From an uncultured Methanosarcinaceae archaeon (GTDB lineage Archaea > Halobacteriota > Methanosarcinia > Methanosarcinales > Methanosarcinaceae), in contig CAVTET010000001.1 in the NCBI GenBank assembly GCA_963733675.1, positions 576,001-640,000 on the forward strand: DNA of 64,000 bases. Reading direction: 5' to 3'. The position numbers and the translations under genes are program-made. Below are positions 6,391-39,528 of the stretch, piece after piece. Numbering within the stretch: position 1 is the stretch's first letter; every line of letters begins with the position of its first letter. The notes beneath the pieces are model-generated. The model worked only from the letters and a program-made list of their open reading frames with translations. It was not told the origin of the DNA and ran no database searches.

Positions 6391-6529
6391 CGGTTACAAT
6401 TATACCGTATAATAAAAATAAGTAGGAAAGAATGTTCTATTAAAAATTGGTCATATTGGGATGAAAATATTACACAATCGAAGGATCTTGATTTTCTCTA
6501 CCCAACGCAAATGTCTCTAGAATTTTCTC

Positions 6530-9106: not shown

Positions 9107-9256
9107 GATTCCGTTGCAAAAATAATATTTCTGCATTTTGATATTATAATTTTCACCTTTATGTATCATTTTCATTAGAAAGAAAATGATTAACTTTCCT
9201 AATTGTGAAGGTTTTTTCTGATTTTGCAAGAAAGCCAGATTTTTTGCAACGGAACC
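9107..9256 (+). mobile_element. 150-bp MITE with IS6-type TIRs, copy 1
   Basis: Ends gattccgttgcaaaaa / ttttttgcaacggaacc; homologous to 13713-13862 and 39529-39678. Confidence 0.9.
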
Positions 9257-9324
9257 CCCTCTACAGCAATTTCTCACTCAAATATTAATGAATTAAGCAT
9301 AGATTATTTGATCCTTATGGAATT

Positions 9325-9949
9325 TTTATTTCAGTCGAATACCCCGCAGCTCGCTGCAGGGATGGAAAATTTCCCCGATAACCGTTGTTAAATAATAAAT
9401 TTCTATTTTTGCTACATTTGTACTGTAAATGGAACTAAGACGTGCAAACCATTGTGTATATAATATAAGATACCACATGGTTTTTTGTTTGAAGTACCGT
9501 AAAAATCTTTTTTAGGGACAGAACTCATAAACTTTTTGAAAAACGTATGCTTTGAAATTAGTGAAAGATACTGTTTTGAGTTTGATACAATTGGTAGTGA
9601 TGGTGATCATGTACATATTTTTATTGGAGCTGAACCAAAGTATTCTCCTTCAAAAGTCATGCAAATTATAAAAAGTATTATAGCAAGATAAATCTTTAAA
9701 CAATGCCATGAAATCAAAAAACAGCTTTAGGGTGGTGAACTGTAGAGTGATGGAGGTTACATTGGAACTATAGAAGATGGAACAACTTCAGATGTTATCA
9801 AAAACGATGTTGAAAATCAGGGAAACAGGGAAGAAAAAGAAGCATATCAGCAAATGAAAATACTCGATTTTTAATAGCCATTACAACCAGAGTGGTGGCG
9901 CGAACATACCCCGTTGCTTGCAGCGGGGTGCGCCAGCACAACTTTGATT
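9325..9949 (+). mobile_element. tnpA: IS200-type element, tnpA (9429-9874) inactivated by a frameshift and two TAGs
   Basis: YHMVFCLKYRK, HUH motif DHVHIF, QL*GGEL*SDGGY; subterminal hairpins CCCCGCAGCTCGCTGCAGGG and CCCCGTTGCTTGCAGCGGGG. Confidence 0.9.
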
Positions 9950-11005
9950 TAAAAGGATTGAAAAAATGGGAGTTAAAGTGGGAACAGTATACATGGATAG
10001 AATATTTTTTAATACAAGAGTCATCTGAAAACTAAATGAGCCTAAACTGAAATTTGTAATTGCAGCTAAATCTAATAAGAAAAGCAAGGCGATACCTGAA
10101 AAGACCCGAACGAAATATGGATATGCGTCCAATATATTTGAAACTAAATTTCAGGGAGGGGGATCAACTTTCAACGTTGTATTAATTTGGGCTAAGAAGA
10201 AAGTATATCTAATGTTTGCTACAACCAAAGAAGGGATCCAATAGACGCATTTATAAAGCAAATACCTGAAAAATACAAAAAGAGATGGAAACTTTATATA
10301 AGTAATAATTGATTTTGAGATCCGAAACTGCTCTAAGTCAACTGTTGCAAGGACGTTATTCTTTGTAGTACTGCATCATACGCATCATTTTGAATATGCT
10401 AAAGTCAATCCTTAAGATTGCAGCATATCAAATGAAATCAATAATCAAGCCTGATATCATCAAAACATTAACCTGCGTGATTGAATCATTATGCAATGTT
10501 CCAGTCAAATTATTCCTGGATACTTAAATAAATTTAGTCGAGAAAGAAGTTGATGCTATGCGCTCGATTAAGAGAGATATAATTCTCAATAGAATCTCAA
10601 AAATTACTAGATGAGTTAGTAAAGACTATACACAATTTTCACTTTAGAACTTTAAATTACTGAAATTTAGAGAGACTATTATGTGAAATATTATCATTCT
10701 GGACGAAATAAAGCGCTCTTTTGTGACTAGTGCAGAAGAACTGTACAAGAATAAGAATAGTCATTCTGAACTATAGGGTTTTACATCTAAAGTATTTTTT
10801 GCACCTAGAGTCTAGCTAAAATGGGATTTTAGGTGCAAAGCCACAACAAAAATATTTAAATATAATAAATACTAACTAAATGATAGTAATTATATGGTTA
10901 TGTATTCGCTCCTCAATCCAAACGTATGTGAAGAGACTGAAAATAGTGTAGATTAATCTCGAATAAGTTTGTGATCTGGGTAAAAAATATCGGAGGAACG
11001 TATAC

Positions 11006-11464
11006 TTGACACTGTCAGTAAAAAGATCATCTTACGATGCATGCATATGGAACCCTTTTGACGAAATCAGAAGAATGCAGGAATACATGGAACAGATGTT
11101 TAGCTCTTTCACGATGTTGGATAATCGGTTCGGTAGCGAAGTCTTGTTTCCATTTGCCGACGTGGTAGAAGAAGCTGATAAGGTAATTGTCACGACAGAT
11201 TTGCCCGGTATTGATAGAGAAAATATTGAATTGAGCCTAAGAGACAATTTCCTCATAATCAATGCTGGAAAAGGAAAAGAGGAAGAGACTAAAAAGGAAG
11301 GTTACATAAGGAAAGAGCGGGGTCTCATGCGATATTAGCGTGGGATCCCTTTTATGAACGGTGTAACCGAAAGCGGAGCATCTGCTCAGCTTAAAAATGG
11401 GGTCTTGACAGTTACCTTTCCAAAAGTAAGTCAATTGGAAGAAAGAAAAATAATGATTGAATAA
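11006..11464 (+). CDS. Small heat-shock protein Hsp20 with an in-frame TAG (11336-11338)
   Basis: Alpha-crystallin domain continues in frame after the TAG: RGIPFMNGVTESGASAQLKNGVLTVTFPK...KIMIE-TAA. Confidence 0.85.
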
Positions 11465-11789
11465 TGGAGCATCAGGGTATGAAAATGATCCCATATCCTG
11501 AATTAATTATAACTTTTTTGATCATATTGGATTGATTTTCGTATTTCATTGATTAGTATGTCCATATCCACTGATTATTTAAAGGATTCTCATTCCGTCG
11601 CAGTTAGGGTATTAATTGCCATGGTATTAGTGTCGACTGGGATGTAGGTGGTAGTGATACCTGTTGGATAATGGTTTATATAGAATATTGAACCACGTGG
11701 TTATTGTACTTAATTTTAAATCTCAAGTTCTTAAGTCCTAAATATAAATTAGTCAATACCCTATCAGGGTCTAGTTATAATTGATAGTC

Positions 11790-12476
11790 TTAGTCAATCA
11801 ATAGAATAGACATTGGTTCAGGTTGCCCTTTAATGGGAAATTCTATGGGCATCTCTGATTCCGCAGCAGTTTTCTTCATATTGATTCCAACTGCGTGCTC
11901 CGGAATTCTTGCCATATTTGAATGGATACAGATTCCCTTTTCCACGTTGCATTTTTCACAAAGCCTACATGAACCATTCACGAATGCGACTGCAAAGGTA
12001 AAACCTTCATTAAAAGCTGCCTTTTCAAGCTCTAGCATCGCTAAAGCCATTTTTTTGCTGTAATCAAAATAATCTGACCAGAACTTTGCTGCTTTTTCCC
12101 TTGTTTCCTCAGACTCAGTAGGGTCAAGCCATGTTTTGTATGGAGCTTTTGCAATTTCTTCGTCTGCGACTGCAGGAGATCTGAACTTGACAAGCAGCGC
12201 ATACCTGTACTCGTTGAGTATCTCCCGAAACTCATCAACAGTTGGAACATGCGGTGGGCAGGTAAGCTTTTTCCCGTAGCCTATACATCCCCTGCATTTT
12301 AAAACCACCCTTTTCTCTACAAATACCTTGGAAATTGGAATTATCTTTGCATCAATTGCATCCATTTCCAGGGCTTTTTTTACAAGTAAATCACATTTTT
12401 CGGGTTCTATATCTCTGAATGACAAATTCACTCCTCCTAATGACTTTTTCCCAATTAAAAGCGACTTATTAGTCAT
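11790..12476 (-). CDS. DUF2284-type Cys-rich metal-binding protein
   Basis: KCxxCxxYGKKLTCPP, GSCRLCEKC, PEHAVGIN. Confidence 0.8.
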   Translation of the reverse strand: MTNKSLLIGKKSLGGVNLSFRDIEPEKCDLLVKKALEMDAIDAKIIPISKVFVEKRVVLKCRGCIGYGKKLTCPPHVPTVDEFREILNEYRYALLVKFRSPAVADEEIAKAPYKTWLDPTESEETREKAAKFWSDYFDYSKKMALAMLELEKAAFNEGFTFAVAFVNGSCRLCEKCNVEKGICIHSNMARIPEHAVGINMKKTAAESEMPIEFPIKGQPEPMSILLID

Positions 12477-12977
12477 AATTTTATTAGAAAATAGGTACTG
12501 TCAGGCGCAGTATATTATATAATCGTTTGCAAATATCTCTATTTCAGTGCAATTTTTATGAAAGTGGTCAAATCAAGTTCTCCTCATGTAGAATTTTTTA
12601 TCATTTTGTAAAATGTGGATTTGGCGAGTTCACTGATGCATAGATTTTTTTTGTTGCAAATCTATGCATTCTCTTAATTTCAGTCAAAATTTTGTAACAA
12701 TTTTATCTAAATATATATATATATATATATACATTCTTATTAAAATAAATGGATACCTAAAAGCCAAAACGTTTATAAAAACTATACTATTATTTTGACA
12801 AATTCCTAAATTTAATCATGTGAATATAAATAATGTATAAATAATTAGTGAAAACTCAGAGATTTAAAATCATCATAAATATCAATCAGTACACTTTCAG
12901 AATTTAGTGATGATTTGAAATTGAAAACCACTCGATTTTGAGATTGAGCCTCTCATTAAGTACAACTGTCAAAAATA

Positions 12978-13712
12978 ATGCTTAAAAGATGGAATATTAT
13001 GAAACTGAAATATAATATAGTCTTTCTATTAATCAGCATGGTTTTATTTTCGGCGATTGCACTTCCAGCATCCTCAATCATGAAGTTTGCGGCACAGCCG
13101 TATTACATTGATCCACAGCATAATTTGTGGCTCAAAGTCAACATGAATGAAAGTACACAACATTTCAATGTGTACAACACACCTGGCTATTCTTCCAATG
13201 GAGATATAGTCATGGGCATACGATAACTTTAGCTCCGGCAGCTTAAATACATCAAAGTGGGCATCTTACAAAGAAGGAAGCAATAATTCAACAGTAGACA
13301 TACATAATGGACATTTGGTGTTGTCAGGCTCTGGTAACACATCTTCTGCGAATGTTGTATTGAATAAGCCATTCACTAAAGGCATTGAATTAGCGGTCAA
13401 TGAAACACTAACAGGGGGTACTCATAACTTAGGTACATTTTCTGATGTTTCTTTTGGTTCCGGCGCACTCGTATGTGGGATTCGGGGAACGGATTGGTGG
13501 CATACAAGCTTCAATGATGGTGGCTCATTCCAAAATCAAGGAATGGACAAAGCAATTATTTGGGTAAACTCAAACAGTTTGGATATCGAGATACCAACTC
13601 CTGGAATCACACTAGGTGATTATATCAAAGAGAATGTTCCCCACACAGTAACATACGGTTATGATGCTTATGGTAATGCAACTATGTACATGCTAAATGT
13701 AACTCAAAATCG
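12978..13712 (+). pseudogene. Secreted protein gene, frameshifted and truncated by MITE
   Basis: Signal peptide; split ORFs 12978 and 13315; the 3' end of the second ORF runs into the MITE. Confidence 0.6.
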
Positions 13713-13862
13713 GGTTCCGTTGCAAAAAATCTGGCTTTCTTGCAAAATCAGAAAAAACCTTCACAATTAGGAAAGTTAATCATTTTCATTAGAAAGAAAA
13801 TGATACATAAAGGTGAAAATTATAGTGTCAAAATGCAGAAATATTATTTTTTCAACGGAACC
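13713..13862 (-). mobile_element. 150-bp MITE with IS6-type TIRs, copy 2 (opposite orientation)
   Basis: ggttccgttgcaaaaaa...ttttttcaacggaacc; reverse complement of copy 1. Confidence 0.9.
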
Positions 13863-14296
13863 GCATAAAGTGTTTCAAAGCTTATTTGGCATGAAAGTAC
13901 ATGATGTTCTCTTCCTCACGTACACTGTTTCTCATTTTTCCCCATAATTAAGAGTATTCTACGATTTCTTTATATATTTTCATCGATTGAGAATAATCAT
14001 CAAAGATTATATTGGTAATAGAAATACTTTAGACTTACAAATAAGAATAGAGATGAATTGAGATTTCAGTAGTTACTTAGCATTAAGAGATTATTTAATT
14101 AATTACAAAGAAATCTGATTTATTTATTTGTTTATTTATTTATTTATTTCGAAAGGAATATTATATATCTCTTTTATATGCTTATTGTCATATATGATTA
14201 TAGTAGGATAAAGTTCTCAATGTGACAAAAACATCTAACGATCCTTAAGTCAAACACTCTTAATGAGATGAAATTGTTGCGTTTATTCACTCAAAC

Positions 14297-17200
14297 TTGG
14301 ACAAAATTTGGATGAACGAAAAACTACGACAATCTGGCATTTATATTGTTGGAGATATGCTCTGGGGGGAGCATATCTGCCAATTCTATGATTCAAAAGA
14401 AGATTTAGCGGACATTCTGATTCCGTACTTCACATTAGGGTTAGAAAACAATGAGTTATGTCTTTGTGTTACGTCACAACCTCTGGACGTCGAGGATGCA
14501 AAAGAATCTATAAGGAAGGCTGTACCTTATTTTGATTCTTATCCAAACAAAGGGCAAATAGAAATCATATCTTACACTTGCTTGCATGTAACTGGGAGAA
14601 TCTACGATTCTAAAAGGATCATAAATTACTGGATTGAAAAAGTCATTCATGCCTTAGAAAATGGCTATAGCGGGCTGAAGTTGAGTGAAAATACTTCTTG
14701 GCTGGAAAAAAAGGATTGGGATTATTTTGTTGATTATATGGAAAAAATGGACGATATTATCAGTCAATACCAAATAATAGCTTTGGGCTCATATTTTTTC
14801 GACAAGTATATCACAACAAATATTATTGAAGTGGTCTCAAGCCATCAATTTTCTTTGAGCAAAGGGGAAGGAAAATGGAAGAAGGCAGATTATTTAGGGC
14901 GAAAGAGAGCTGAAGAAGTAGTTTTTCGAGCCGTGAAATATTGGGAATATACTTTTGATGCTGTGCCAGACCTGATAGTCACAATAGACACTAAATATCG
15001 GATAACCCGCGCAAACAGAACCATGGCGGTAAAATTGAGGTTTGCAAAAGAAGAGTGTATTGGGTTAACTTGCTGTCGTGCTATCCATGGAACAAGCGGG
15101 CCTCCTTTTTTTTGTCTGCACCAACAGTTGTTTAATGATGGACTCGAACACACTGCTGAGATTTGTGATTATCATCTTGGTGGTTATTTCATAGTAAGCA
15201 CCTCTCAACTACATGATTCAGAAGGAAAACTCATTGGGGGTATTTAAATCGCCCATGATATAAGTGAACGCAAAGTCGCTGAAGATGAGCTGCGCCAGAG
15301 TGAACATTGTATCGAGCAGAAGTTGGTGTATATCCCCTCATCGTCTCTAAAGATGGAGAATTTGCTTGCTGATATAATTGATATCCAGGTTATTCAGTCT
15401 CTCGTGAATGATTTCTATAAGCTCACTAGCATGCCTATAGGCATAAACGATCTCAAAGGCAATGTTCTGGTAAGCGCTGGATGGCAGGATATCTGCACTA
15501 AATTCCATAGGGTTCATCCACAAGTTTCCAAGTACTGCGTAGAAAGCGATACAAAACTAGCATCTGCTGCTACCCCTAGAGAACTTAAGATGTACAAGTG
15601 TAAGAACAATATGTGGGACATAGTGACTCCTATCATGTTGAATGACCAGCATGTCGGCTATATCTTCTCAGGACAGTTCTTTTTTGATGATGAGCCTCTG
15701 GACTATGAATTTTTTAGATCCCAAGCTAGAAAATACGGTTTCAATGAGGGAGAATACATGGCAGCGCTTAATAACGTTCCAAGGTTGAGTAGAGAGGCTG
15801 TGAAAACGGGCATGTCCTTCCTCATGGCATTTGCCAATACACTCTCACAACTAAGCTACAGCAATTTCACGCAGGCTCAATTGCTGACGGAACGCAATAC
15901 CCTGTTGAATGCGCTGCAGGAGAGTGAAGAACGTTTTCATACGATGGCAAATGCGATTCCACAATTGGCATGGATCTCCCGTCCAGATGGCTATATCTGC
16001 TGGTTTAATGAACGCTGGTACTCTTACACCGGTACCACTCCGGAGCAGATGGAAGGTTGGGGCTGGCAGATTGTTCACGACCCAGAAGTGCTGCCAAAAG
16101 TACTGGAGCAGTGGAAGGCTTCGATTTCGACGGGGCAAATGTTTGATATGGAGCTTCCTTTGCGCGGTACCGATGGTATTTTTCGCTCGTTTCTCACGCG
16201 TATTTTACCCCTGAAAGATGCAGCAGGAAACATCCTTTGGTGGTTTGGAACAAGTACAGATGTCACCGAGCGCAAAAAAACTGAAGAAGCCCTTAAAAAA
16301 GCACGTGACAGTTTAGAAGAAAAAGTCAAAGAGCGCACAACGGAGCTAGATAAAGCTTATAACTCGCTAAAAGAAAGTGAAAAAAGGCTCGCTGAAGCTC
16401 AAAAAATGTCTCATATTGGGAATTGGGAATTGGATCTTATAACTAACAAAATATATTTATCTGACGAATTGTATCTTATTTTTAACCACACTTTACGAGA
16501 ATTAGTCTCACCTTACAATGACTATTTAAGTTATGTAAGCCCCAAAGATCGAGACCATGTGGATAAGGCCTTTAAGGCAGCTATTGATGGAAAACCCTGC
16601 AGTATTGATCATAGAATTATCTTAGCTAATGGGGAAGAACGCACAGTCCATTTACAATCCGAAGCTATTTTTGATGAAAAAAAGATCCCTATTCGATTGA
16701 AGGGAATAGTTCAGGATATTACTGAACGTAAAAAAACTGAAGAGAAAATTCAGAGCTTAGCGAATGTTGTAGAATCATCAAATGATGCTATCCTTACTAT
16801 ATCTCTTGATGGTATTATTACTAGCTGGAATAGGGGTGCAGAGCAGATTTATGGTCATTCATCGGAAGAAATTATAGGAAAAAGCGTATCAATACTCTCA
16901 CCAGATGATCTCAAAGATGAAACAAAAAAGCTAATTGAAAAGGTTAAACTGGGAGACAGAATCCAACGTTACAGAACTTCAAGGTTAAGAAAAGATGGTA
17001 AGTTAATCTATGTTTCAATAGCTCTTTCTCCGGTTTTTGATTCATCTGGAGAGCTGGTGGCTATCTCAGCTATTACTAGAGATATCACTGAAAGCAAAAA
17101 AGCTGACGAAGTTTTAAAGTTGAAATTAGAAGAACTTGCCCGTTCAAATGAAGAGTTAGAACAATTTGCTTACGTTTCATCTCACGATTTACAAGAGCCT

Positions 17201-17848
17201 TTGTGGATGATAACAGGTTATTTGCAGCTTTTAAAACGGAGATATCAAGGCGAACTTGATGATAAAGCTGATAAATACATAAACTGTGCTGTTGAGGGGG
17301 CCTTCAGTATGCAAAACCTGATAAATGATCTTCTAGAATTCTCTCGAGTGACTACAATTACTAGAGAACCTGAATTTACGGATTGTGAATTTATTTTGAA
17401 TCAAATATTATCGAATTTAAAATTATTTATAATCGAAAGTAAAGCTACTGTTTCATATGGCTCTTTACCTAAGATAATGGCAGATTCTATCCAGCTAGTT
17501 CAGGTATTTCAGAATCTGATCATCAACGGAATAAAATTCCACGGTGAAAAGGCGCCAAAAATTCATATTTCTGCAGAGAAAAAAGCTAATGAATGGTTAT
17601 TTTCAGTTCAGGATAATGGAATTGGAATTGATCCTCGATGTTTTAAGAAAATCTTTGAAATTTTTAAAAGACTGCATAAAAGGGAAGAATATCCTGGAAC
17701 AGGAATAGGGCTTGCAATTTGTAAGAAAATTATAGAAAAACAGGGTGGACGTATATGGGTAGAATCTGAACCGAGTAAAGGTTCAACTTTTTATTTCACT
17801 TTACCAATTAATCCTATAAAAGTTCAAAAACTAAGTTTTAACACGTAA
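14297..17848 (+). pseudogene. MEDS-PAS-PocR-PAS(x3)-histidine kinase split by a single in-frame TAA (15245-15247); downstream part may still be expressed
   Basis: WGEHICQFY (MEDS), CKNNMWDIVTPI (PocR), SHDLQEPL H-box, GTGIGLAICKKI. The two ORFs are in the same frame, joined by IAHDISERK. Confidence 0.85.
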
Positions 17849-18559
17849 GAAAAAACGTTCAAATTGTTATTGAAATTCATTTATTAAAGAAGTCTCACTA
17901 ATTAATTTCTAACAACGTTTCCCATTTCTTTTGCTTTGAATAGAAAAGAAATCCTTAAAATATTTTGGTGTACTTTTTATATTAATGTATATGAATATAC
18001 GTGTAATAACAAGCTTTCATTTCAAAAAGTTCTTATTATGGTTCGTGGTGTCAGACTACATACAATGATGCTGATGAACTAAAGTTATTGCCATAGAAAA
18101 TATATGCAAAAACTTTATATTATATAATTGATAGTTAATCTATAGTAGTACATAACTACTCTATAGCAAACATTCTAAAAAGAAATGTTACATTGTAGTT
18201 ATGTATCTATAAGTGATAAATTGTCGGCGAACTCTCCAACAGATGGTCTACGCAGCTGCAGGTATCTCTTACCGTTTTAGTGTAGTTATGTGTCTGGCAG
18301 TGAAATTATCACTGGGCTCTCCGACAGATAGTCTCCCACGCTGCAGGTATTTCTTTCCTGCAGCTTATAATATATACTTTTGTTGGTACATCGTTGATGA
18401 CCATAAGACATCAGTTATTCACTGCTGTTGCCATGGTCAAGAATTAAAATTTCGGATCTCTAGGATAACCCTGCGGGATCAGAGAACTGTAGGGTCTCAA
18501 GAATCAACAATGACAGTAATCTTTTTAGATAAACCATTTCTGTTTCTCAGATTTTACAT

Positions 18560-29840: not shown

Positions 29841-30182
29841 ATGTTGAAACTTGGAATGAAAAAGGTACTCACAGTTTTGCTGTCAGTCCTTTTTGTAGTA
29901 TCGTTGACTGCAGCGGCAGCAAGTGCACATGATGGTAATCGTGGTAATCGTGGTCACGGTGGCTTTGGTGACGGCTTTGGCTTTGGCGGCTATGGTATGG
30001 GCTGCGGCGGCTGTGGCGGCTTTGGCGGCTGTGGCGGCTTTGGCGGCTGTGGCGGCTTTGGCGGCTGTGGAGGATATGGAATGGGTTATGGAGGATATGG
30101 AATAGGTTGTGGATATCCTTGTGGACTTGGCATGAACTATCCTTTCTACCCTTACTACCCCCCAATTAATATTATACTCTAA
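29841..30182 (+). CDS. Secreted Gly/Cys/aromatic-rich small protein with (GGCGGF)n repeats
   Basis: Signal peptide ending ASA; 18-bp tandem repeat ggcggctgtggcggcttt at about 30006-30070. Confidence 0.8.
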   Translation: MLKLGMKKVLTVLLSVLFVVSLTAAAASAHDGNRGNRGHGGFGDGFGFGGYGMGCGGCGGFGGCGGFGGCGGFGGCGGYGMGYGGYGIGCGYPCGLGMNYPFYPYYPPINIIL

Positions 30183-30944
30183 TTAATATATATTAGGGAA
30201 AATTCCGATATATATTTGCTTTAAACAACCAGCATAAATTATGATTTATCGGAATTTTCTATAGTTTTTTTGTTGCTTTATAACTCATTTTTGCTCTATA
30301 AATTGTTTTTATTGTTATTGCTAAGCCTTTTGCGATATCTGTACTGACATTATGTTTTGTAAGTCATCTATGTGAATATCACGAACATCAAAGGAAACAT
30401 TTATAGATATTTTTGTTTGATTTTTTTTATGGGTGTTATTGGCGATGAAATTTTCTATAGATTATTGGTAATAAGGTGGTGGTTTATGTGTTTGATGCCT
30501 ATTTTTTAAATAAAGAAAATCAGAGAAATATTTTTATAAAAATTGTGATATGACTAATTTAAAGTAAAGTAAAAACATTGCTGACTTCAGCTAAAACTGA
30601 TAAAAGAGGTGGATTTGTTATATAAAACTTGTGCATAGACAAAAATTGAAAAGTTCCTTTTCTGGTTGGATTAGATTTATAAGAGCCGTTTATTTGTGTT
30701 TTGCATTCGATTCGATTTCTTTTTTATGATCTCGGTATCTTTTTTTCTTTAATTTGTTATTAGTTTCAGTGTTTTTTCGGTTTCTTCTTTTTCCCTTTTC
30801 TCCCGTCCATCAGTAAAAACAGTGTCATCAGATGTTTTGTCAGTAATACTATTGGCTCTGCATCCTACTTTTTGCAGTGAAAGAAAAGGATAATGGAAAG
30901 GTCTTATTTTACAGAACTTCATCTACCCTGTTTCCACAAATCGG

Positions 30945-31259
30945 ATTTATTTCAGTCGAATACCCCGCAGCTTGCTGCGGGGATGGAAAACTTCCCCGAT
31001 AACCGTTGTTAAATAATAAATTTATATTTTTTGCTACATTTGTACTGTAAATGTAACTAAGACGTGCAAACCATTGTGTATATAAAATAAGATCTCACAT
31101 GGTTTTTTTGTTTGAAGTACCGTAAAAATCTTTTTTTAGGGACAGAACTCATCAACTTTTTGAAAAACGTATGCTTTGAAATTAGTGAAAGATACTATTT
31201 TGAGTTTGATGCAATTGGTAGTGATGGTGACCATGTACATCTTTTTGTTGGAGCTGAAC
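30945..31259 (+). mobile_element. tnpA: IS200 element, left half (interrupted at att core)
   Basis: Near-identical to 9325-9634; similarity stops after GTTGGAGCTGAAC. Confidence 0.92.
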
Positions 31260-31284
31260 TAACATAAATAACTGTATTGTTTAT
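31247..31284. other. attL (core plus element arm)
   Basis: GTTGGAGCTGAAC-taacataaataactgtattgtttat; arm is an inverted repeat of the attR arm. Confidence 0.88.
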
Positions 31285-31309
31285 CTAGGATAAATTCTAT
31301 TAAGTTAGT

Positions 31310-32445
31310 ATGAGTAATTCGAAGATCTTAAATGATTACTTAAGGAAGTGCCAAGCAGATGGACTTACGGAAGAGACAATTGCAACTGCTGAATATACAC
31401 TTATAAAGTTCATATAATGGTGTGGAGATCGAGAATTAAAGGAGTTTACAACAGACGATGTTTACGATTATCTGGATTTTATAAATGCCTATACATACAT
31501 CAAAGCTGGTAAGGCCGTTAAATACTCACCTGGTACACAGCAACGAATTAGAACTGTTTTGAAAAAATTCTTGACCTTTATAAATCATGAACTAGGAGCC
31601 GTAATAAAGTTACGAACGCTAAAAAATGGGAAAATCCCCGAAGATATTTTGACTCGCGAAGAAATTGAAAAATTAATTGATTCATGTCGAAGTAACAGAG
31701 ATCGGGCTATAATTGCTACTTTTTATGAAAGCGGAGCTAGAAGGGGGGAATTACTAACAGTTCAACTTAAACATGTGACTTTTGACGAGAATGGGGCAAT
31801 CCTCAATATCCAAAAAGGGAAAACAGGAAGTCGACGCGTTAGGCTTGTATTAGCTTCATCTTACCTTAAACAGTGGATTGACACGCATCCATTAAAGAAT
31901 GATCTTGATGCTTACTTATTCTGTTCGACTAATTCTCCTTTTGGAGTTATCACATTTGTAGGACTTGCAGATCAACTACACAAAATAGCAAGTAGAGCAG
32001 CTATCCAGCCAAAAAGAGTTTATCACATGCTTTTAGACATGCCAGAGCAACCCACTTAGCCGAACAATTACCTGAACAACTTTTGAAAGAATATTTAGGC
32101 TGGACAAAATCAAGTAATATGGCGAGTATATATGTGCATATGTCAGGCCGAGATGTGGATAATGCTATACTTAAGTTGCATGGAATCGAGACTGGAGAAG
32201 CTACCAAAAAATTCATTGTTAATAAATGCCCACGTTGTAAGGAAATGAATCCAGAAAATGCTTTATTTTGTTTTAAATGTGGGCTGCCACTTACGCAGGA
32301 AACTGCAACAACAGTAGAATTCGTAAAAACCGATTATATGCAACTCGCAAATCTAGACGAAATTAGAGAAATGAAAAATACATTAAAACAGGAGCTAGAA
32401 GAAATCTCTAAGCTGAAAGAGATAATGCTTAAAGCTGGAAAATGA
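31310..32445 (+). pseudogene. Tyrosine integrase with C-terminal zinc ribbon; TAA at 31415 and frameshift near 32025
   Basis: ESGARRGE, KGKTG, reconstructed HAFRHARATHLA, LGW...YVH, CPRC/CFKC. Confidence 0.9.
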
Positions 32446-32475
32446 TTTATATATAATTTATAAGGAATTATAATT

Positions 32476-33666
32476 TTAAGGAGTCCTTACTTTTGCTATA
32501 CATTTTTCAAAGAAATTATTTAAAAAAACACCATAATCTTCTGATGAAGGCGACCTGTATTTATCCGGCTTCGCATCCATTATATTAAAAAATTTACTAT
32601 TTTCTTGCACGAATTCTTCTTCTTCGATGGAAATTGTTCCGTCTAGAATATCTCTCTGAAAGCAGTGGTCGAAAAGTAGCTCAATACCTATTATTTTTCT
32701 GTCGTGCTCAAAAGTTATTATTTGCAGTATTTCACGACACGTCTCTTTCCAATTTTTATCCACTAAGATTCTGTTAAATATCTCTTCCGACATTTTTTTT
32801 ACCAAATTAGCCTGGTCTACTAGCATTTCATTAGGTTTTTCTAGTAACTCTGTATGCATATCTTTAAGCACGTTCAGAGCTATTATTTTAGATGCCATTT
32901 TAAATGATATATTTGCTATCATTAATTTATAAAGTTCTTCAATTGATATTTTTCCATATTCTGTCGGCAATGACACTTCTACTATTTTCTGAAACGTTTC
33001 TTCTAACATCTCAATATCTGCGGATAATTTCAAAGATTTTTGACAAATCTTCGATTTCAGTGAATCGTTTATGCATTCATTATAAACATCCAGCCAAATA
33101 TTTGGGTTGGCTATAATCTTTTTCATGAATTTAACGTAAAGTTTATTAGTCGGATTTTTGACAGTTAATACGGATGTCCAGTAAGTAGCGCCTATGGATA
33201 ACCTACAAATTTCGTCAGCTTTGTTATATAAAGTTTCAACCTCGTTTTTTAAGCATATATCAAAAAAGGAAACCGATAAAAGCAACTGGATACTGTACTT
33301 CTTAGCAATAGTAGTATCTAGATTTAAACCGCGTTGTTTGCTGATTATATTTAACGATTTTTTATATATGTTTAATCGTATGTCAGGGAACTGAATTCTG
33401 ATATTTTTTAAATTTTCAATTCTTTTTATGTCCCACCTATTAGCTAATCCAGGCTTCGCTGGGATTTTTTCTATACACGAATAAGGGCGGTATTGCAAAT
33501 CTCTAAGATGCTTTTTTATGTTCCCTTGATCTTTTATCTCGTATTCTCTCGCCAGAAATTCTCTTATTTCTGGCTCTGGAACAGGTCCATCACTACTTAT
33601 AATAAATTCAAGTATTCCAGCTTTGGCCTCATTCCATTTGAGGTGATCTCCTTGACTTCTTCTCAT
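32476..33666 (-). CDS. Hypothetical protein with probable N-terminal winged-HTH (element regulator)
   Basis: ILEFII...EPEIREFL...IKKHLRDL; divergent from the AbrB-like gene. Confidence 0.6.
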   Translation of the reverse strand: MRRSQGDHLKWNEAKAGILEFIISSDGPVPEPEIREFLAREYEIKDQGNIKKHLRDLQYRPYSCIEKIPAKPGLANRWDIKRIENLKNIRIQFPDIRLNIYKKSLNIISKQRGLNLDTTIAKKYSIQLLLSVSFFDICLKNEVETLYNKADEICRLSIGATYWTSVLTVKNPTNKLYVKFMKKIIANPNIWLDVYNECINDSLKSKICQKSLKLSADIEMLEETFQKIVEVSLPTEYGKISIEELYKLMIANISFKMASKIIALNVLKDMHTELLEKPNEMLVDQANLVKKMSEEIFNRILVDKNWKETCREILQIITFEHDRKIIGIELLFDHCFQRDILDGTISIEEEEFVQENSKFFNIMDAKPDKYRSPSSEDYGVFLNNFFEKCIAKVRTP

Positions 33667-33810
33667 ATGCTATAAAATATGCTATATGGTATAATAAATC
33701 TATGTATTATTTCTTTATTGCAATTACTGCTCATTTTTTAATAAAAACCATATGGTATTATTATTCTAATATTTTTACGGTATGTTTAAATATTAAAATT
33801 AACATGTTGT

Positions 33811-33996
33811 TTGACGGTGATGAAAATCAATTTCAATTTCGGAAAAAGAAAAATTCAAAAAGTTAGGTATTCCTTCTTAATTCCTTTGCCTATTGATTGG
33901 GTCAACAGCATGAAACTTGGTAAAGGTAATTTGCTGGAAATTGAAATGCAAGAAGACTATAGTTTGAAGATAACCCCGGTTCCACAGGCCCGGTAA
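33811..33996 (+). CDS. AbrB/MazE-like DNA-binding protein
   Basis: RKIQKVRYSFLIPLPIDWVNSMKLGKG..LEIE. Confidence 0.75.
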   Translation: MTVMKINFNFGKRKIQKVRYSFLIPLPIDWVNSMKLGKGNLLEIEMQEDYSLKITPVPQAR

Positions 33997-34052
33997 GACT
34001 CTGAAGGAACCAGGAGCACAACACCAACCAACCAAAAGAAGGAGATGTCGGC

Positions 34053-34202
34053 ATGAATAATATGACACCAAAAGATATATCTTTTACCTCATGGGCGAAA
34101 CAAATCTGCATCAAACATACTGAAATTTTAGATCGCATGAGAAAAAGTACTGATCCACTGGGAAGGGCAATAGCAGTTAGAATTATAAAAACGCAGGAGT
34201 AA
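34053..34202 (+). CDS. 49-aa hypothetical protein (missed by ORF track)
   Basis: GGAGA RBS; MNNMTPKDISFTSWAKQICIKHTEILDRMRKSTDPLGRAIAVRIIKTQE. Confidence 0.6.
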   Translation: MNNMTPKDISFTSWAKQICIKHTEILDRMRKSTDPLGRAIAVRIIKTQE

Positions 34203-34716
34203 TTGAGCTTTAAAAAGAGAAATAGGGTATGTAGATTACCCTGGATCACACAAAGGGAAGGAAACTGATTGAAAAAGTCTTACAGTAGATAATATCATTT
34301 TACCTTATTTAATCCTTCTATGTGTGATTTTCTCTTCTTTTTGCTACTGCGGGAGTTGAAAATATGTCATTCAACCCAGACGAGTTTTTCTGTAAACGTT
34401 TGTATATTTTATTTAGTGTCCGGATGAAAGGAAATAAAATCCAGCTCAATATAAATTATTATAATAAGTTTATTCTTTATAAAGCTTTCACTAAAGTAAA
34501 CTGGTTGCCGTCCTATATATGGATCACACGTTCTGCATTTTCAAAGCTCAGGTGGTTCTGAATGACTGCCCGAACCTTCATTAAACCTTGCAAGAAACAG
34601 TCTTCTTCTATCTGCAGTATAAAACTCTGCTCTGAATGTTGTGAAGCGCGGGAAAAGGAGAATTTTATGAGGGCTTTATTCATTTTAAGCCTAATTTTAC
34701 CCCAGGAAGTTTGACA

Positions 34717-36452
34717 ATGTCTTCGGATTCTATTTTCGCTCAAATGGATATTGTCAAAATAATTAGATCTTATGGGATTAACCTAATCCGAGAAGGTAAT
34801 ATGTATTACGGATCAATTCCACCTGTGGGGCAAACCGGTAAAAGTTTACATGTTTGGGCTAATGCAAATACCTGGTTTTGCAACAAAAACCATGTAGGTG
34901 GGGGTATTCTTGATTTTATTCAATATATAGAGAGAGGACTTACTAAACGGCAAGCACTTGAAAAAGCGGCAGAAATTTCAGGAGTTCAACTTGAGCCATT
35001 CTCTGATGAGCAAATTAATAAGCTTGAAGAAAAAGAAGATGTTTATAACACTCTTACTGCACCTGCAAATATCTACCACACAAATTTGACTAATGATCGG
35101 TACAGTTTCATTTTCAATCGATGGGGAATTACCAGAGAATCAGTGGATGATTGGAACTTGGGATATGCTTCCACTGAACGAAATCTTGAAGGCATGGATC
35201 CTAAAAACTTGATCAAAGCTGGCTTAGTGAATATTACTGATACTGGAAATATGGGGAGAATTCTATAGAGGTAGAATAATTTTTCCTTACCTTATCGATG
35301 GCACGATTCAATATATGGCAGGCAGAGTAACTCCTGATACTCCAGATCATGATAAAGGAGCGAAATACAAATATCTGCGAATTAAATCTGAAACAAAAAA
35401 TGAACAGATATCTGAATTTATCAACAAAAAGGGATTTTTTTGGGGAAGATCGAATAAAGAGTGCAGATTTCTGCTTTATTACTGAAGGACTTGCGGATTG
35501 TATTGTAGCCAATCAATTTGGCTTTCCTTGCCTAGCTTTAGGTTCTACGGGGATATCAAAAGAATGCCAGGAACATTTGATTCATTTACTAGGCGAAAAA
35601 AAATGTGTCTACCTATGCTTTGATAACGACGAAAACAAAGCAGGGCAGAAGGGAGCCATAACAATAGGACAAATTCTTTTCGATGCCTGTATTCAAATTA
35701 AAATTATTGATCTCCCTTCTGGATCAAAAAAAATGGATATTGCAGAATTTATGAAAGATAGAGAAGCTAAAGACTTTGAATTATTAAAAAAAGAGGCTTT
35801 TAGCTTCATAAAATATACATTAAACCTCTGTTCTGTATCTGACTCTTTGCCAGAAAATTACAAAACTGCTGAGTCTTTTGTGTGTGATAGACTTCTTAAT
35901 ATCCAAAATCTATATAGAGATGCCTATATTTCCGATGAGATAAAACAGCACTTCAATTTCCAAAATAAACAAAGAGATAACCTTATTAAGCAAGCTAATG
36001 GGTGGGTGCAAAATGGAAAAGAAAATAATAAAGTCGTAGAAGACGACAATGGAGTCGAAGAAATAGACCATCTTACGTTAGATTTGATTACATCCCTTGA
36101 AATTCAGAAAGAAACAGGATTGTTAGCTTGTGAAAAATGGGTTAGTAATAATAAGATCAGTATTGCAAAAGTCCCTCCAGAATTATTAGCCAAAAAGTTG
36201 GTGGGCCTAAGGGAAAAAAGATATAACTACAGCAATTTTATCCATTCAATTAAAGAAACGTTTCTGTTACAGTCGTATGAAATAGAAGAAATTTACCAGA
36301 AAATACTTGGAATTAATAAAGGGTATTATAACGAAAAAAAACGATTAAATAAAATCTTAATCCGGATTCAAAATTATTCTTCACATATAAGAGCGAAAGC
36401 TCAAGATTTATTAAAGTATGGGGACCCCCAAAATTTCATCTATCAAACTTTT
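34717..36452 (+). pseudogene. Bacterial-type DnaG primase (Zn-binding-like + Toprim), frameshifts near 35250 and 35430
   Basis: WFC...GGGILDFI, LGYA, EFYRGRIIFPY...YMAGR (alternate frame), ITEGLAD, LCFDNDENKAG, KMDIAEF. Confidence 0.85.
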
Positions 36453-37239
36453 AGGGCGATTCAGTTGTAAATATCCAAATCTTCAGCAGCAGCCTAGTAA
36501 ATACCAAAAATGGAGAACCATATTTACAGCTGAGCCTGGAAATAAAATAATATCTTTTGACCACTCTCAAATAGAGCTTAGGATATTAGGAGACAAAGCA
36601 GTTGAGCTTGCTTTTATAGAAGCTTTTGCTGCAGGTATGAATATTCATACCCTTACTGCTTCTAAGATCTTTAACAAGCCATTTGATAGTATTCAAAAAA
36701 CTGACAAAGAACGCAGTATAGCAAAAACGATTAATTTTGGTTTACTTTACGGGATGTCCGCTAAAGGTCTGATGAAAAAGTTAAAAACAGACGCTGGGAT
36801 TGAACTAACAGAAAATCAGGCTAAAGAGTACATTCGTACTTTTAAGGTAGCTTATCCTTTCATAAGTAGTTATATGGAAAGAATAAGTCAAGAAGGCATA
36901 CAAAATAGAGAATTAAGAAATGCTGCAGGTAGGCTATTAATTATCGATGACGATATAGATGAGAGTGCTGCCGGTAGGGAAGCAATGAATCTACCTATTC
37001 AATCACTATGTGCAGATATGATTAAGGAAGCTCTTCCCCAAATCCAAGCTAAACTTGAGCCTTTAGGTGTAAAATTCATTAATATCGTTCATGATGAGCT
37101 CGTATTTGAGTGTAAAGATGATCAGGCTGAGGAAGTCTGTACTTTTGTAAAAACAATAATGGAAAAAGTAGGGAATAATTACTTAAAGCATATTCCTTGT
37201 GTAGTTGATGTTAAATCCTCAGATTATTGGCAGAAATAA
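36453..37239 (+). pseudogene. Family A DNA polymerase palm/fingers domain, N-terminally truncated
   Basis: GRFSCKYPNLQQQP, FDHSQIELR, RSIAKTINFGLLYG, NLPIQSLCAD, VHDELV. Confidence 0.9.
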
Positions 37240-37606
37240 ACAACATCTAGTCTTTTGATAATGTCTACTTCATCTTTTTCTATTTCTGGTTCTAACTGAT
37301 ATTTCATGTGGAAACAAGTAATCTATCTTACATAATTAAATTTAAAAATGTTGTTTTTTAACGTCAATTTTATTAGTTTTACCCAAAAATAGGAAACTAT
37401 ATTGAGAAAAAAATAGTTCGTTTTAAATATCTTTTATAAAAATTCAAATTTATTCCATCGAGATTTTCTCCATAACCAACTATTCAAGTGTTAAAATGTT
37501 ATTGTTTACCATTACCATTTTGCATTGATGATAACGTATAAGTACTAATAAATAGTATATAGTAGCGTCGTTTCTTGAAAATTGACGGGCTGGTAGATCG
37601 CATAAC

Positions 37607-37831
37607 ATGAAAGGTGATAACACAAGATTTCAACAGAAATTTACAGAAGATATGTTCCTGAATGCTCTATCAATTGACAGCATCAAGTCCAGTGCGACTA
37701 TTATGAATCTAGTAGGATGTAGCAGGTCCACAGCTAAAAACATGCTTTACAAGCTTGTAACTGAAGGGAAAGTGAAAAAAATAGGAATTGAAGGCGACGG
37801 TTACGGTTGGCAGAAAGTAAAAGATGATTAA
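37607..37831 (+). CDS. Small winged-HTH protein
   Basis: IMNLVGCSRSTAKNMLYKLVTEGKVKK. Confidence 0.7.
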   Translation: MKGDNTRFQQKFTEDMFLNALSIDSIKSSATIMNLVGCSRSTAKNMLYKLVTEGKVKKIGIEGDGYGWQKVKDD

Positions 37832-38117
37832 AATGAGTTTTATTGACAACAAGAAGCAAGAAAGCGATCCGGAATTTGTGTTGCAAATAATGCCGGAATT
37901 AAAAGAAGATTATCTCAAAGATCGTCCGTGCAAGTTGGAAAAAGATTCGATAGAGATTTGGAAAGTCGTAAGTGTACTTAATGGAGATTGTGACCTACCA
38001 ATCGAGCAACAATCTTTTTCATGCACTCAGGTACTTTTTGATAAAGAAGGCGAAGATAGATATTTAAATTTATGCGAACAAGCAATGCAAGAGAAAGGAG
38101 TTGCGTTTGATCAATAA
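37824..38117 (+). CDS. Hypothetical protein
   Basis: Overlaps the stop of the previous gene; operon-like. Confidence 0.55.
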   Translation: MIKMSFIDNKKQESDPEFVLQIMPELKEDYLKDRPCKLEKDSIEIWKVVSVLNGDCDLPIEQQSFSCTQVLFDKEGEDRYLNLCEQAMQEKGVAFDQ

Positions 38118-38782
38118 TTGGGTACTATTCATAAATTGGATTGCACTATAGTCAATGAAGGTGGTGATACAGAAGTAAAACCTGTGTTTTTGCTGATTGA
38201 TTCAAAAATTTATCATGAGATAGATTGTAGACATCTACCTGAAGAGTTGTTAAATAAGTTGCTATAAATTGTATGTACCTTGTTTTAATAGAATTGTGGG
38301 GAAAATCAAAATCTTCCTTACTCATTTAGTATTTTAGTATCATTTCTTTGATTATGTGATCAACATTAACATTATTTAGCTTAAGTTATCCTAACTACTC
38401 TAAATACCCTAGACTAAAGAATATGAAATTTATGTGAAAACATTATCCTAAAATTTAAGTACTATATAGCAAATATAAGTTATATATTTTTTATGTGATA
38501 AAAGTGTATGCCAAATATCTCGTGGTTAGTTACCGTGCATGTCAGTAAAGATCATGGGAAATAAAAAAGGTCAAAAAAATGACTTATTATGAGATCAGTG
38601 GTGAGACTTTTATTTAAAGTTTGGTTTGTGAATTATTGCCATACTCAAAACAATCGCTCTTAGAGCCGGAGACCGGCTCAGATTTGATAGCTGTGAACCT
38701 CACTTCTATACAAAACAAAACGAACTAAATATTCAAATACAATACTAGTTAATATTAATTAAAAAGTAAACAAGGTGATAAT

Positions 38783-39234
38783 ATGACTCGTCCTTCTAAA
38801 CTCACTCCGGAAATACAAAAAAGAATCGGTGATAATATTGCACTCGGTTTGACTTATAGATTGGCTGCCGAGTCGGTTGGTATAACCTATAAAACGTTAA
38901 ACGAATGGAATCAGAAGGGGCAGACTGAGAAATCTGGGAAATACTATAAGTTTGCACAATATATCCAAAAATACAATGCTAATGCCGCAAAAGCTCTTTT
39001 GGAACGCATAAATGAATCAGCAAAAGCTGGTGATACGCAAATGTGTACTTGGGGATACTTGAACGCCGTTTTGCGTCAGACTTTGGACGTCGGGTATATA
39101 AGAAAACGAATGTTGTTGCAGAAAATTTGAATCAGAATGTTGAGATAATAGTTCAGGACACAGATGCAATTCGAGAAGAAATTCTAGCAAAGTTTGATCG
39201 GGTTGAAGAAAGTAATGAGTTATTAACTAGTTAA
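38783..39234 (+). pseudogene. HTH/terminase-small-subunit-like protein with frameshift near 39050
   Basis: RPSKLTPE...AAESVGITYKTLNEW; WILERRF motif split across frames; AGGTGA RBS. Confidence 0.65.
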
Positions 39235-39317
39235 GGTTTTTCATTCTAACTTAATCCATTTTTAATAGAAAATATTTTACTATTTATTCTTATCAATGGG
39301 CATAATTGTAGTCGAAC

Positions 39318-39528
39318 TTACCAAAATCTCAACCAAGGTTTCTTAGCTCTCGGAGCTTCAATTGACTTCTGAGTGATGAGTGTTTGAACTTGCATCATAT
39401 AATTCGTGTGCATGTTCTTGATATCTTCAAGTTCTTTTTTAATGTTGCAATATGATCATTCAAAAATCTGTTTTCAGCATCCATGGACTCAAATTCTTTT
39501 TTGTATCCTGATGTCTCACAACTATCAT
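39318..39528 (-). pseudogene. Coiled-coil protein C-terminus truncated by MITE
   Basis: KELEDIKNMHTNYMMQVQTLITQKSIEAPRAKKPWLRFW-TAA. Confidence 0.65.

Follow-up and report, generated by a model that had tools for sequence, protein, structure and literature searches.

A decayed integrative element of a Methanosarcina-group methanogen and the primase-helicase and family-A polymerase genes of its relatives

Introduction

Archaeal chromosomes are copied by the DNA polymerases PolB and PolD, the primase PriSL and the MCM helicase. In bacteriophage T7, the gp4 helicase belongs to superfamily 4 (SF4), and its C-terminal tail contacts the polymerase. Here, we describe a locus in which a bacterial-type DnaG primase abuts a family-A DNA polymerase (PolA) in an archaeon. 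It lies within a decayed integrative element at positions 31205-39404 of a stretch of 64,000 nucleotides (nt), called the window, which corresponds to positions 576,001 to 640,000 of the forward strand of contig CAVTET010000001.1 (assembly GCA_963733675.1, an uncultured Methanosarcinaceae archaeon). Coordinates refer to the window unless a locus or contig is named.

Several described systems resemble parts of this element. For instance, PolAs of the 'Hot Spring 1 / Aquificae-like' group (cluster #8) occur in Methanomicrobia, and in the apicoplast members of this cluster the polymerase forms one protein with a helicase and a TOPRIM primase (Czernecki et al. 2023, PMC10201439). The same work describes the gene context of archaeal PolAs as one that 'is not indicative of a prophage'. 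In phages, divergent SF6 helicases (MCM-like, DUF3987) have a primase of the AEP or DnaG kind beside them or fused to them (Kazlauskas et al. 2016, PMC4889955). That 2016 survey of double-stranded DNA viruses found DnaG-like primases to be confined to bacteriophages and PolA to be largely limited to them. Finally, in CCPol of the staphylococcal SCCmec islands, a relative of family-A polymerases, the exonuclease domain is mostly missing and the protein works as a primase together with MP (PMC10201439). PolA in Methanomicrobia (PMC10201439), fusions of a primase to an SF6 helicase in phages (PMC4889955), and MCM-like helicases or PolA relatives on SCCmec islands are therefore already known.

A dead element with a deleted replication module

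With a probability of about 85%, window positions 31205-39404 are the dead remnant of a small integrative element of a Methanosarcina-group methanogen, whose intact kin carry a primase-helicase gene and a separate PolA gene. The remnant covers about 8.2 kb, and its bounds are the limits of blastn homology to locus L015, whose flanking genes differ. L015, from a metagenome-assembled genome labelled uncultured Methanosarcinaceae, is an undeleted relative closer to the window than copy 2 (see below) and served as the reference for the limits, the deletion and the small insertions and deletions. Two further loci are used repeatedly below: copy 2, a second copy of the element in the same genome and contig (C1:1027650-1035218, locus L009), and L014, from Methanosarcina sp. 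UBA289, which encodes a 1242-aa primase-helicase (P0004).

The stretch 34711-37239 (+) does not hold one gene; it consists of three open primase pieces and a PolA piece. Primase piece 1 (34711..35268, +, frame 1) comprises a ligand-poor zinc-ribbon-like domain (PF01807 Zn_ribbon_DnaG, E 1.8e-8, 34.5 bits, cut-off 24.9) and the start of the DnaG catalytic core, and is 87% identical to the primase of copy 2. Near its end is frameshift 1 (35253..35256, +), where pairwise alignment to L015 and copy 2 reveals a G run that is short by 2 nt (4 G vs 6 in L015). Piece 2 (35257..35441, +, frame 2; open frame 35231-35485) is a segment of the catalytic core with the motif KYKYL. It ends at frameshift 2, a T run at 35435-35441 that has gained 1 nt (7 T vs 6). 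Piece 3 (35442..36452, +, frame 3; open frame 35331-36470) contains the Toprim domain (PF13155 Toprim_2, E 2.7e-8, above cut-off, in ORF 35349-36470; ORF, open reading frame), followed by a linker that is 84% identical to P0005 and leads into the helicase in intact relatives. A script located the conserved Glu motif of Toprim (ITEGLADC) at 35478-35501 and its DxD motif (CFDNDEN) at 35616-35636.

The catalytic-core subdomain DNAG_N (PF08275) is recognized in P0004 (E 1.3e-7, 32.2 bits, cut-off 26), and the corresponding region of the window is interrupted by both frameshifts. The dnaG model TIGR01391 gives P0004 123 bits (E 1.2e-35), far under its equivalog cut-off of 283.6. Therefore, this is a primase of the DnaG family and not a cellular DnaG. 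The canonical CHC2 zinc ribbon has four ligands. A single Cys plus His residues remain in the window and its relatives, and more distant helicase-linked primases have no Cys at all in the zinc-ribbon segment. This loss, despite the fold-level Pfam match, is seen at window positions 34843-34893 and in the N-termini of P0011, P0020, P0036, P0043 and P0107, whereas single-ORF primase-PolA fusions from elsewhere retain CxxC pairs. Thus, the label 'CHC2-like' given to this domain by the first-pass annotation holds for the family match, which is above cut-off, but not for the zinc ligands, most of which are gone.

Primase homology ends at YQTF (36441-36452), and frame 3 stops six codons further on, at 36470. 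The PolA side begins with GRFSC at 36454, in frame 1, so that the two flanks are out of register. On both sides of this point the window is colinear with L015 by blastn: 31205-36453 matches L015 4499-9737 with 83% identity, and 36453-37451 matches L015 12351-13345 with 92.7% DNA identity. The intervening 2,613 bp of L015 (its 9738-12350) are absent from the window, the junction (36452..36454) having at most 1-2 nt of microhomology. At the protein level, the frame-3 piece aligns to P0004, P0005 and P0003 until just before the Walker A region and no further. Because of this unmatched DNA within a colinear match and the halt of the protein alignments at YQTF, the junction is explained by a deletion, and the suspicion of one at about 36452, raised from the abrupt change in homology, proved right. 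In copy 2, about 3.2 kb separates the Toprim region from the GRFSC motif. Through a non-homologous deletion of about 2.6 kb, the linker in the window now runs out of frame into the polymerase fingers. Lost with the deleted DNA are the core and C-terminus of the helicase and residues 1-310 of PolA, which make up its exonuclease domain and the thumb-side, N-terminal portion of its polymerase domain; these are the parts that the first-pass annotation had suggested might be missing.

What is left of PolA (36454..37239, +, frame 1) consists of the fingers and palm, with a TGR-like motif and motifs A, B and C (PF00476, E 2.7e-63, profile positions 118-380 of 381). Scripted searches placed motif A (DHSQIELR) at 36559-36582, motif B (RSIAKTINFGLLYG) at 36712-36753 and motif C (VHDE) at 37087-37098, and the proposed abutment of a zinc-ribbon/Toprim primase on a PolA domain with all three motifs is present as described. 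These approximately 262 C-terminal residues equal residues 311-570 of the 570 in L015 PolA, with 96% amino acid identity. They include no PF01612 exonuclease domain and only part of the polymerase domain, while intact relatives hold both domains complete.

Since this deletion comes together with two breaks in the primase and one each in the integrase, a small ORF and a terminase-like gene, the window copy is dead. It cannot replicate or move by itself.

Intact relatives and the link between primase and PolA

Intact members of the family have the order integrase, divergent ORF of about 380-410 aa, AbrB-like protein, replication module, small helix-turn-helix protein, small ORF and terminase-small-subunit-like (TerS-like) gene. 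In the lineage of the window, the large protein is of about 1240 aa and consists of the primase, a linker, an MCM-like AAA+ core, a C-terminal helical or winged-helix part and a long tail. A PolA gene of 570 aa comes next, with an active-looking 3′-5′ exonuclease domain and a start that overlaps the upstream stop.

L014, in which every gene is whole, illustrates this organization. An integrase with a zinc-ribbon tail (4309-5424) is followed by a divergent 381-aa ORF (5637-6782, -), an AbrB/MazE-like protein (6912-7163) and the 1242-aa DnaG-primase::helicase (7995-11723), which has Zn_ribbon_DnaG, DNAG_N and Toprim_2 in its first ~350 residues. The 571-aa PolA (11720-13435; PF01612 and PF00476) overlaps the upstream gene by 4 nt in another frame. 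This primase-helicase and PolA pair has the accessions WP_292379182.1 and WP_292379179.1. The best NCBIfam match of this PolA type is NF011539 (E 1.2e-108), under the cut-off of the model.

The generality of this arrangement was assessed by searching genome and metagenome collections with the primase-helicase alignment and mapping the modules by tblastn. PolA starts at, or at most 80 nt from, the end of the primase-helicase in eight of nine distinct close loci (L014, L015, L028, L029, L030, L032, L034 and L035; the duplicates L027 and L044 were left out). The sole unlinked close locus, L033, has 1.8 kb of downstream sequence without PolA. Hence, the concern that homologues of the primase might never be linked to PolA, which would have made the junction a chance fusion, is answered by these loci. 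An AEP-primase version of the same helicase (L011 = L016 = L031) also has PolA next to it, and a DnaG primase fused or adjacent to a D5-like SF3 helicase, together with PolA, is found in copy 2 and in an IMG/VR contig (L019, 59.7 kb).

By contrast, no PolA was found in 1.7-7 kb downstream of more distant DnaG::helicase fusions (28-36% identity; L037, L039, L040, L043 and L045), within 5.8 kb in another AEP version (L046), or within 1.75 kb in a locus with DnaG and a D5-like helicase (L041). The link between primase and PolA is real and conserved in one lineage and, because PolA is missing beside the more distant primase-helicases, PolA is an optional cassette of a modular family. Of the earlier proposal of a family of self-replicating integrative elements, the integrase-borne family with its primase-helicase and PolA module is supported; the window copy cannot be self-replicating.

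The alternative proposal of a single fusion protein fails: each intact close relative encodes primase-helicase and PolA in two genes, whose stop and start overlap, and the window junction is out of frame. Separate abutting genes, and not a PREX-type polyprotein, are also seen in L028, L029, L030 and L032. Single-ORF fusions occur among distant homologues only (26-36% identity): for the 120 long PolA homologues listed, the Pfam columns show Toprim/DnaG domains (PF13155, PF13362, PF13662, PF01807 or PF08273) alongside PF00476 in 32 and the AEP domain PF09250 in about 36.

An MCM-like fold in the helicase

The helicase core, 406 aa of P0004, had no match in the local Pfam, PHROG and NCBIfam collections, its only label being the precomputed PF27228.1. 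Nevertheless, it belongs to a large family: a threshold of E <= 1e-3 gives 1,144 representative clusters, and one of E <= 1e-30 still gives 202. The N-termini of 51 long members are DnaG-type in 11 cases and AEP-type in 17, with neither in 23 (E <= 1e-5). An alignment of 65 sequences has D108, R168 and R238 conserved throughout and a nearly invariant GxxGxGK P-loop.

An AlphaFold2 model of the core built from this alignment has high confidence scores (pLDDT 94.7, pTM 0.93). Foldseek comparison of the model with the PDB gave MCM chains or MCM-containing complexes in all of the best 40 rows (E from 1.5e-9, TMq 0.45-0.55). A wide VIA search, independent of Foldseek, agrees: MCMs take ranks 1-10 and 12, with Z scores of 21.5-16.8 and root-mean-square deviations (rmsd) of 2.9-3.6 Å over 240-284 residues, yeast Mcm5 being at the top (Z 21.5, rmsd 2.9 Å, 270 residues) and archaeal MCMs close to it (Z 20.8-20.5). 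The score steps down after the MCMs, to RavA (16.9), BchI (16.1), BrxL (14.1), ComM (12.6) and ordinary AAA+ proteins (at most 11.5). No SF4 helicase is among the 50 VIA matches listed or among the Foldseek matches listed. In P0004, the place of the MCM N-terminal OB-fold/zinc domain is taken by the DnaG primase and linker. According to the model, the helicase is MCM-like in fold, although it is not a member of the MCM family by sequence. When the helicase family was compared by hhalign with one DUF3987 protein, the probability was 0.05, a value that, given a weak single-sequence target, is not evidence of unrelatedness.

A proposed two-protein replisome

From the observed anatomy and gene linkage and the fold class of the helicase, a mode of replication can be proposed in which the enzymatic activities and the autonomy of the element are predictions. 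After excision, the helicase ring would unwind the element, the fused primase would lay RNA primers, and the co-translated PolA would extend them with proofreading. This would amount to a two-protein replisome analogous to T7 gp4 and gp5, with a non-homologous helicase.

The helicase protein ends in a short amphipathic helix, KKGIxILKxAL, which is a candidate docking site for PolA. The tail KKGIxIL..L.A is invariant in seven of seven proteins encoded directly upstream of PolA type 1 (the type found in the window), including that of copy 2 with its D5 core, and other helicase types upstream of PolA have similar amphipathic acidic tails. It is absent from all six intact distant primase-helicases for which no PolA was found downstream (L037 and L039-L043), although L042 had almost no downstream sequence. 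These distant proteins end in ..PEY..LG..KL..RGW.

Other genes and limits of the element

The remaining genes of the window element correspond gene for gene to the backbone of the intact relatives. At its left end is a pseudogene of a tyrosine integrase with a C-terminal zinc ribbon (31316..32445, +; PF00589, E 9.9e-11, with zinc-ribbon matches). Alignment to L015 indicates a loss of 1 nt at about 32024, which splits it into ORFs 31559-32059 and 32083-32445, and the intact 384-aa integrase of copy 2 matches the window in two frames by tblastn. A divergent 396-aa ORF follows (32476..33666, -), with homologues at the same position in L014, L015, L012 and C8. It had no match in Pfam, PHROG or NCBIfam, and lenient Pfam thresholds gave nothing usable for it, for its 381-aa homologue or for the 159-aa ORF mentioned below. 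Next comes a small AbrB/MazE-like DNA-binding protein (33811..33996, +), whose PF04014 match falls just below the cut-off (E 3.8e-5, 24.0 vs 24.7 bits) and which has a counterpart at the same position in L014. Downstream of PolA, a 74-aa helix-turn-helix protein has been kept (37607..37831, +; PF22168, E 4.3e-6; 83% identity to its copy 2 homologue). It is followed by the homologue of a conserved ORF of 131-159 aa (37824..38267, +), a single 159-aa ORF in L015 that is broken in the window by an in-frame stop at 38115-38117.

The same backbone sits between differing flanking genes in the window, copy 2, L014 and L015. Because of these unrelated flanks across genomes and the PF00589 integrase at one end, the element is of the site-specific integrative type that uses a tyrosine recombinase. 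A tRNA scan of the window found none. The host is a methanogen, since McrA is on the same contig, and all named relatives of the element genes are from Methanosarcina.

Beside the left end of the element there is a fragment with the motif DGDHVHL (30929-31267), which by eye, without a tool match, resembles an IS200/IS605-type transposase. In L015, two parts of this fragment lie on opposite sides of the element (4499-4560 and 17612-17886), which could be due to a target site, a circular permutation or coincidence. Further to the left, 29841-30182 encodes a secreted-looking protein of 113 aa made mostly of GGC/GGF/GGY repeats (a 9-nt periodic DNA repeat), and a similar Gly-rich ORF is near copy 2 (L009 4407-4649).

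Distribution in the host genome and the genus

The host genome has 19 matches to PF00476, 17 of them above cut-off, and they fall into two types. Type 1, that of the window, has Phe at motif-B position B3, and type 2, intact as a 682-aa protein at C4:169207-171255, has Leu. In the published classification, exactly two PolA clusters have Methanomicrobia members, #8 and the Leu-bearing #15 (PMC10201439). Since it has Phe where that cluster has Leu, the PolA type of the window lies outside the CHEAP cluster #15. The supplement of that paper, which may not be its only one, contains no occurrence of Methanosarcina, Methanolobus or five accession strings.

A census with 15 module queries produced 49 hit clusters in the host genome. 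Backbone A, int-ORF(-)-[primase/helicase]-PolA1-HTH-ORF-TerS-like (HTH, helix-turn-helix), is found at the window, copy 2 and C8, in partial form on C9 and C10, which are short contigs, and as fragments at the starts of contigs C5, C6 and C11. Backbone B, int-PolA2-TerS-like, is found at four loci, and there are about 20 solitary TerS-like copies. The DnaG module is limited to the window and copy 2, and it is broken in both. The locus C4:167561-174789 (L022) represents a second, apparently intact element type, with a 428-aa integrase, the 682-aa PolA and a TerS-like gene. Across the genus, proteins like P0004 are present in 22 of 59 genomes, host included. PolA was detected in 4 of 24 other genomes sampled from the genus (5 of 25 with the host); of 16 genomes belonging to the order's other families, one gave a weak match.

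Some further features were noted in passing. L022 adjoins a nif gene cluster, and its PolA has a divergent N-terminal region. Contigs C8, C9 and C10 (4.5-9.8 kb) are copies of the element backbone with the order AEP-DUF3987-PolA1-HTH-ORF-TerS-like, and several contig ends are alike; evidently, these element copies break the assembly. Parts of another decayed element are at the start of the window (1-340, - strand, and approximately 6560-6914), with a PolA fragment at C1:575894-576340 (one internal TAG), pieces of a DUF3987 helicase and a TerS-like gene at C1:582559-582914. Finally, in L011 (G018:C37), a Lys/Thr-rich ORF of 1196 aa with no obvious family lies at 13338-16928, downstream of the AEP-helicase and PolA, and this element may be a larger virus-like entity.

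Weighing the interpretation against its alternatives

Several observations weigh against the interpretation given above or parts of it. Searched as a profile, the helicase alignment brought up no MCM among solved structures, only P-loop and helix-turn-helix noise, and it is the modelled fold that suggests a helicase function. Its polarity is not inferable, because a DUF3987 'SF6' helicase has been measured to run 5′-3′ (PMC11724360). Docking of the tail to PolA is suggested by their co-occurrence, and yet the AEP-helicase of L046, where PolA is missing, has an acidic tail like the PolA-linked ones. No convincing direct repeats were seen at the homology limits and attachment (att) sites were not found, so the ends of the element are approximate. 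Moreover, copy 2, the best relative in the same genome, is broken too, and both primase frameshifts are in homopolymer runs, where a shared sequencing bias is not fully excluded. This last caveat spares the deletion and the in-frame stop.

Among the alternatives, the one that survives best extends this interpretation and is not exclusive of it: the elements might be satellites of head-tailed methanogen viruses, analogous to phage-inducible chromosomal islands (PICI), with the window copy as a dead member. An integrase, a replication module and a small-terminase homologue without capsid genes are the anatomy of a phage satellite. Such elements would combine their own replication module with a small-terminase homologue that directs their packaging by the large terminase and capsids of a helper. 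In the window, the gene in question (38783..39234, +) is split over two frames, as seen in a two-piece tblastn match (38783-39130 and 39043-39234), and matches phrog_4102 (E 1.2e-15); in L015, the match to this family, annotated 'terminase small subunit', has an E of 1.4e-21. The earlier statement that no capsid or conjugation genes are visible is true of the window, but it had passed over this TerS-like gene.

Among 50,697 phage records the gene has a single match, ORF8 of Methanobacterium virus PhiF3 (E 3e-8), which is directly upstream of the annotated large terminase and portal. In a provirus-like locus of a genome of the same genus (L052), a homologue (36-38% identity, E 4e-26) directly precedes a Terminase_6N gene. 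In the host genome, tblastn with PhiF3 ORF8 gives 27 matches (e.g. C12:289938-290339 and C4:167561-167971), and there is no match to the large terminase, portal or ORF11 of PhiF3, nor to PF03354, PF03237 or PF04466, though at 92% completeness a helper provirus could be missed. No recognisable capsid gene is in the elements seen. On the other side, the terminase label comes from one PHROG family and synteny in two loci, no Pfam terminase family matches the protein even at a lenient threshold, and a small protein of the helix-turn-helix type could equally be a regulator or an excisionase. In addition, a homologue adjoins just 1 of 12 large-terminase loci of the genus, and the satellite lifestyle, with its helper, packaging site and packaged form, is a prediction from genes. 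On balance, we consider a satellite nature possible but unlikely.

A more ambitious form of this idea is similarly tentative. Methanosarcina might harbor a large modular family of virus satellites, in which an integrase and a swappable replisome cassette are combined with a small-terminase homologue that hijacks the packaging motor of head-tailed methanogen viruses. Each cassette would be a fusion of a primase, of the DnaG or AEP type, with a helicase that is MCM-like, D5-like or of the DUF3987 kind, and one of the two PolAs might or might not accompany it. The version with DnaG::MCM-like helicase and PolA would then amount to a minimal chimeric replisome, in which a peptide at the C-terminus of the helicase serves for docking, and the multiplied TerS-like family would possibly be a marker of virus satellites.

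Much less probable is that the junction and frameshifts are assembly or sequencing artefacts and that the real locus has an intact primase-helicase and PolA. Both primase frameshifts and that of the integrase are length changes of single-base runs, which are typical errors of long-read assembly, and the many related copies in the genome could mislead an assembler. This was examined with public Logan contigs of four runs aligned to 34600-37300, X1 and X2 being from one study and X5 from another. A contig of 1,405 nt from X1 (35193-36597) has no difference or gap over both primase frameshifts and the junction. At the T-run site and the junction, bridging contigs without differences there also come from X2 (35350-35634 and 36385-36597), as well as from X5 (35325-35491 and 36392-36858). 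X1 may be the source sample, and the library types of the confirming runs are not on record. Patches of the region without cover in X2, X4 and X5 carry no weight. One loose-end contig of X2 does run into undeleted PolA sequence at 36453, but it differs elsewhere across 36489-36567 and so comes from another copy. Furthermore, five separate genes are broken, one of them through a base substitution to a stop codon. These data make an artefact very improbable, and the deleted, decayed element remains the preferred explanation.

Fainter still is the prospect that the PolA remnant has been retained for a function, for instance as a fingers/palm fragment that interferes with incoming related elements. 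The open frame on the PolA side (36415-37239) is uninterrupted and has an in-frame ATG at 36418; the resulting ORF of 273 aa includes each of the three catalytic motifs, and its protein identity to L015 (96%) is above the 92.7% of the DNA. However, such protein identity would be expected anyway had the deletion happened recently, after most of the divergence. The ATG is a chance codon within the former primase linker, every neighbouring gene is decaying, and family-A polymerases are reported to need the exonuclease domain for the stability of their fold (PMC10201439). Least probable of all is a functional single-chain primase-polymerase created by the junction: although single-ORF fusions of Toprim/DnaG to an exonuclease-polymerase PolA exist, as counted above, and apicoplast PREX is a published Toprim primase-helicase-PolA polyprotein (PMC10201439), primase frame 3 stops at 36470 while PolA is in frame 1, the primase alone needs two frame changes, the remnant is without residues 1-310 and thus the exonuclease domain and N-terminal polymerase part, and all close relatives (PolA 74-96% identical) have two genes.

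Comparison with known systems

In the open literature searched, no description was found of a cassette of a DnaG::MCM-like helicase and an exonuclease/polymerase PolA on archaeal integrase-borne elements, of its modular swapping or of the accompanying TerS-like gene, nor is the element type described in the accessible portions of PMC4158269, PMC4104785, PMC3984812, PMC9796341 and PMC11724360. The window copy is a fossil whose value is that its deletion pointed to the family. Integrase-borne elements with replication gear of a DnaG-type primase and PolA are common in one archaeal genus. Their intact members would offer a natural two-protein replisome that mixes bacterial-type and archaeal-type parts and is small enough to reconstitute, and they could supply polymerases and primase-helicases from mesophilic archaeal hosts. 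They also give a gene context for PolA in Methanomicrobia, a point on which the published classification of these sequences was open, and they flag a possible satellite lifestyle in methanogens.

The closest parallels differ in which part they share. Like PICI and the Staphylococcus aureus pathogenicity islands (SaPI), the elements have an integrase, their own primase and replication module, a small-terminase homologue and no capsid genes, with many copies in one genome where no large terminase was found. Unlike those islands, the present system is known from its genes, and its TerS is assigned through one PHROG family and synteny. SCCmec islands (Cch; CCPol-MP-Cch2) likewise integrate and bring their own MCM-like helicase or relative of a family-A polymerase (PMC10201439). 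In contrast to them, a full exonuclease-polymerase PolA is paired here with a DnaG-type primase, and the structure of SCCmec Cch matches the helicase model with a Z score of 10.4, weaker than cellular MCMs.

Phage SF6 primase-helicases share with the present proteins the joining of a primase to an MCM-like AAA+ helicase and a C-terminal winged-helix part (PMC4889955), and sister elements of the same genus have DUF3987 helicases before PolA. The helicase core described here, however, is without profile similarity to a DUF3987 protein, in what was a weak single-sequence test. It also differs from the picture in the 2016 survey (PMC4889955) that DnaG-type primase and PolA are here both on archaeal elements.

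In PREX and cluster #8, as here, a Toprim primase, a helicase and PolA form one module. Among solved structures, PolA is matched best by Taq, Klenow and apicoplast PREX, with no T7 chain in the best 60 of 74. The match to PREX polymerase chains spans the whole PolA of an intact relative (198 bits, E 2.6e-57), and the score of Klenow is just as good. Unlike PREX, there are two genes and no polyprotein and, unlike the archaeal PolAs as described in PMC10201439, the context is an integrase-borne mobile element.

Finally, T7 gp4 and gp5 are similar in having a Toprim/DnaG-type primase N-terminal to a ring helicase and a separate family-A polymerase with exonuclease and polymerase domains. To this extent, the description of the module as 'T7-like' stands as a functional analogy. 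It does not extend to the parts themselves, since the helicase model matches MCM-clade AAA+ proteins and not SF4, and PolA is closest to Pol I and PREX. The primase, with its DNAG_N core and ligand-poor zinc-ribbon fold, is a further difference from T7, as are the archaeal host and an integrase-borne element as the carrier.

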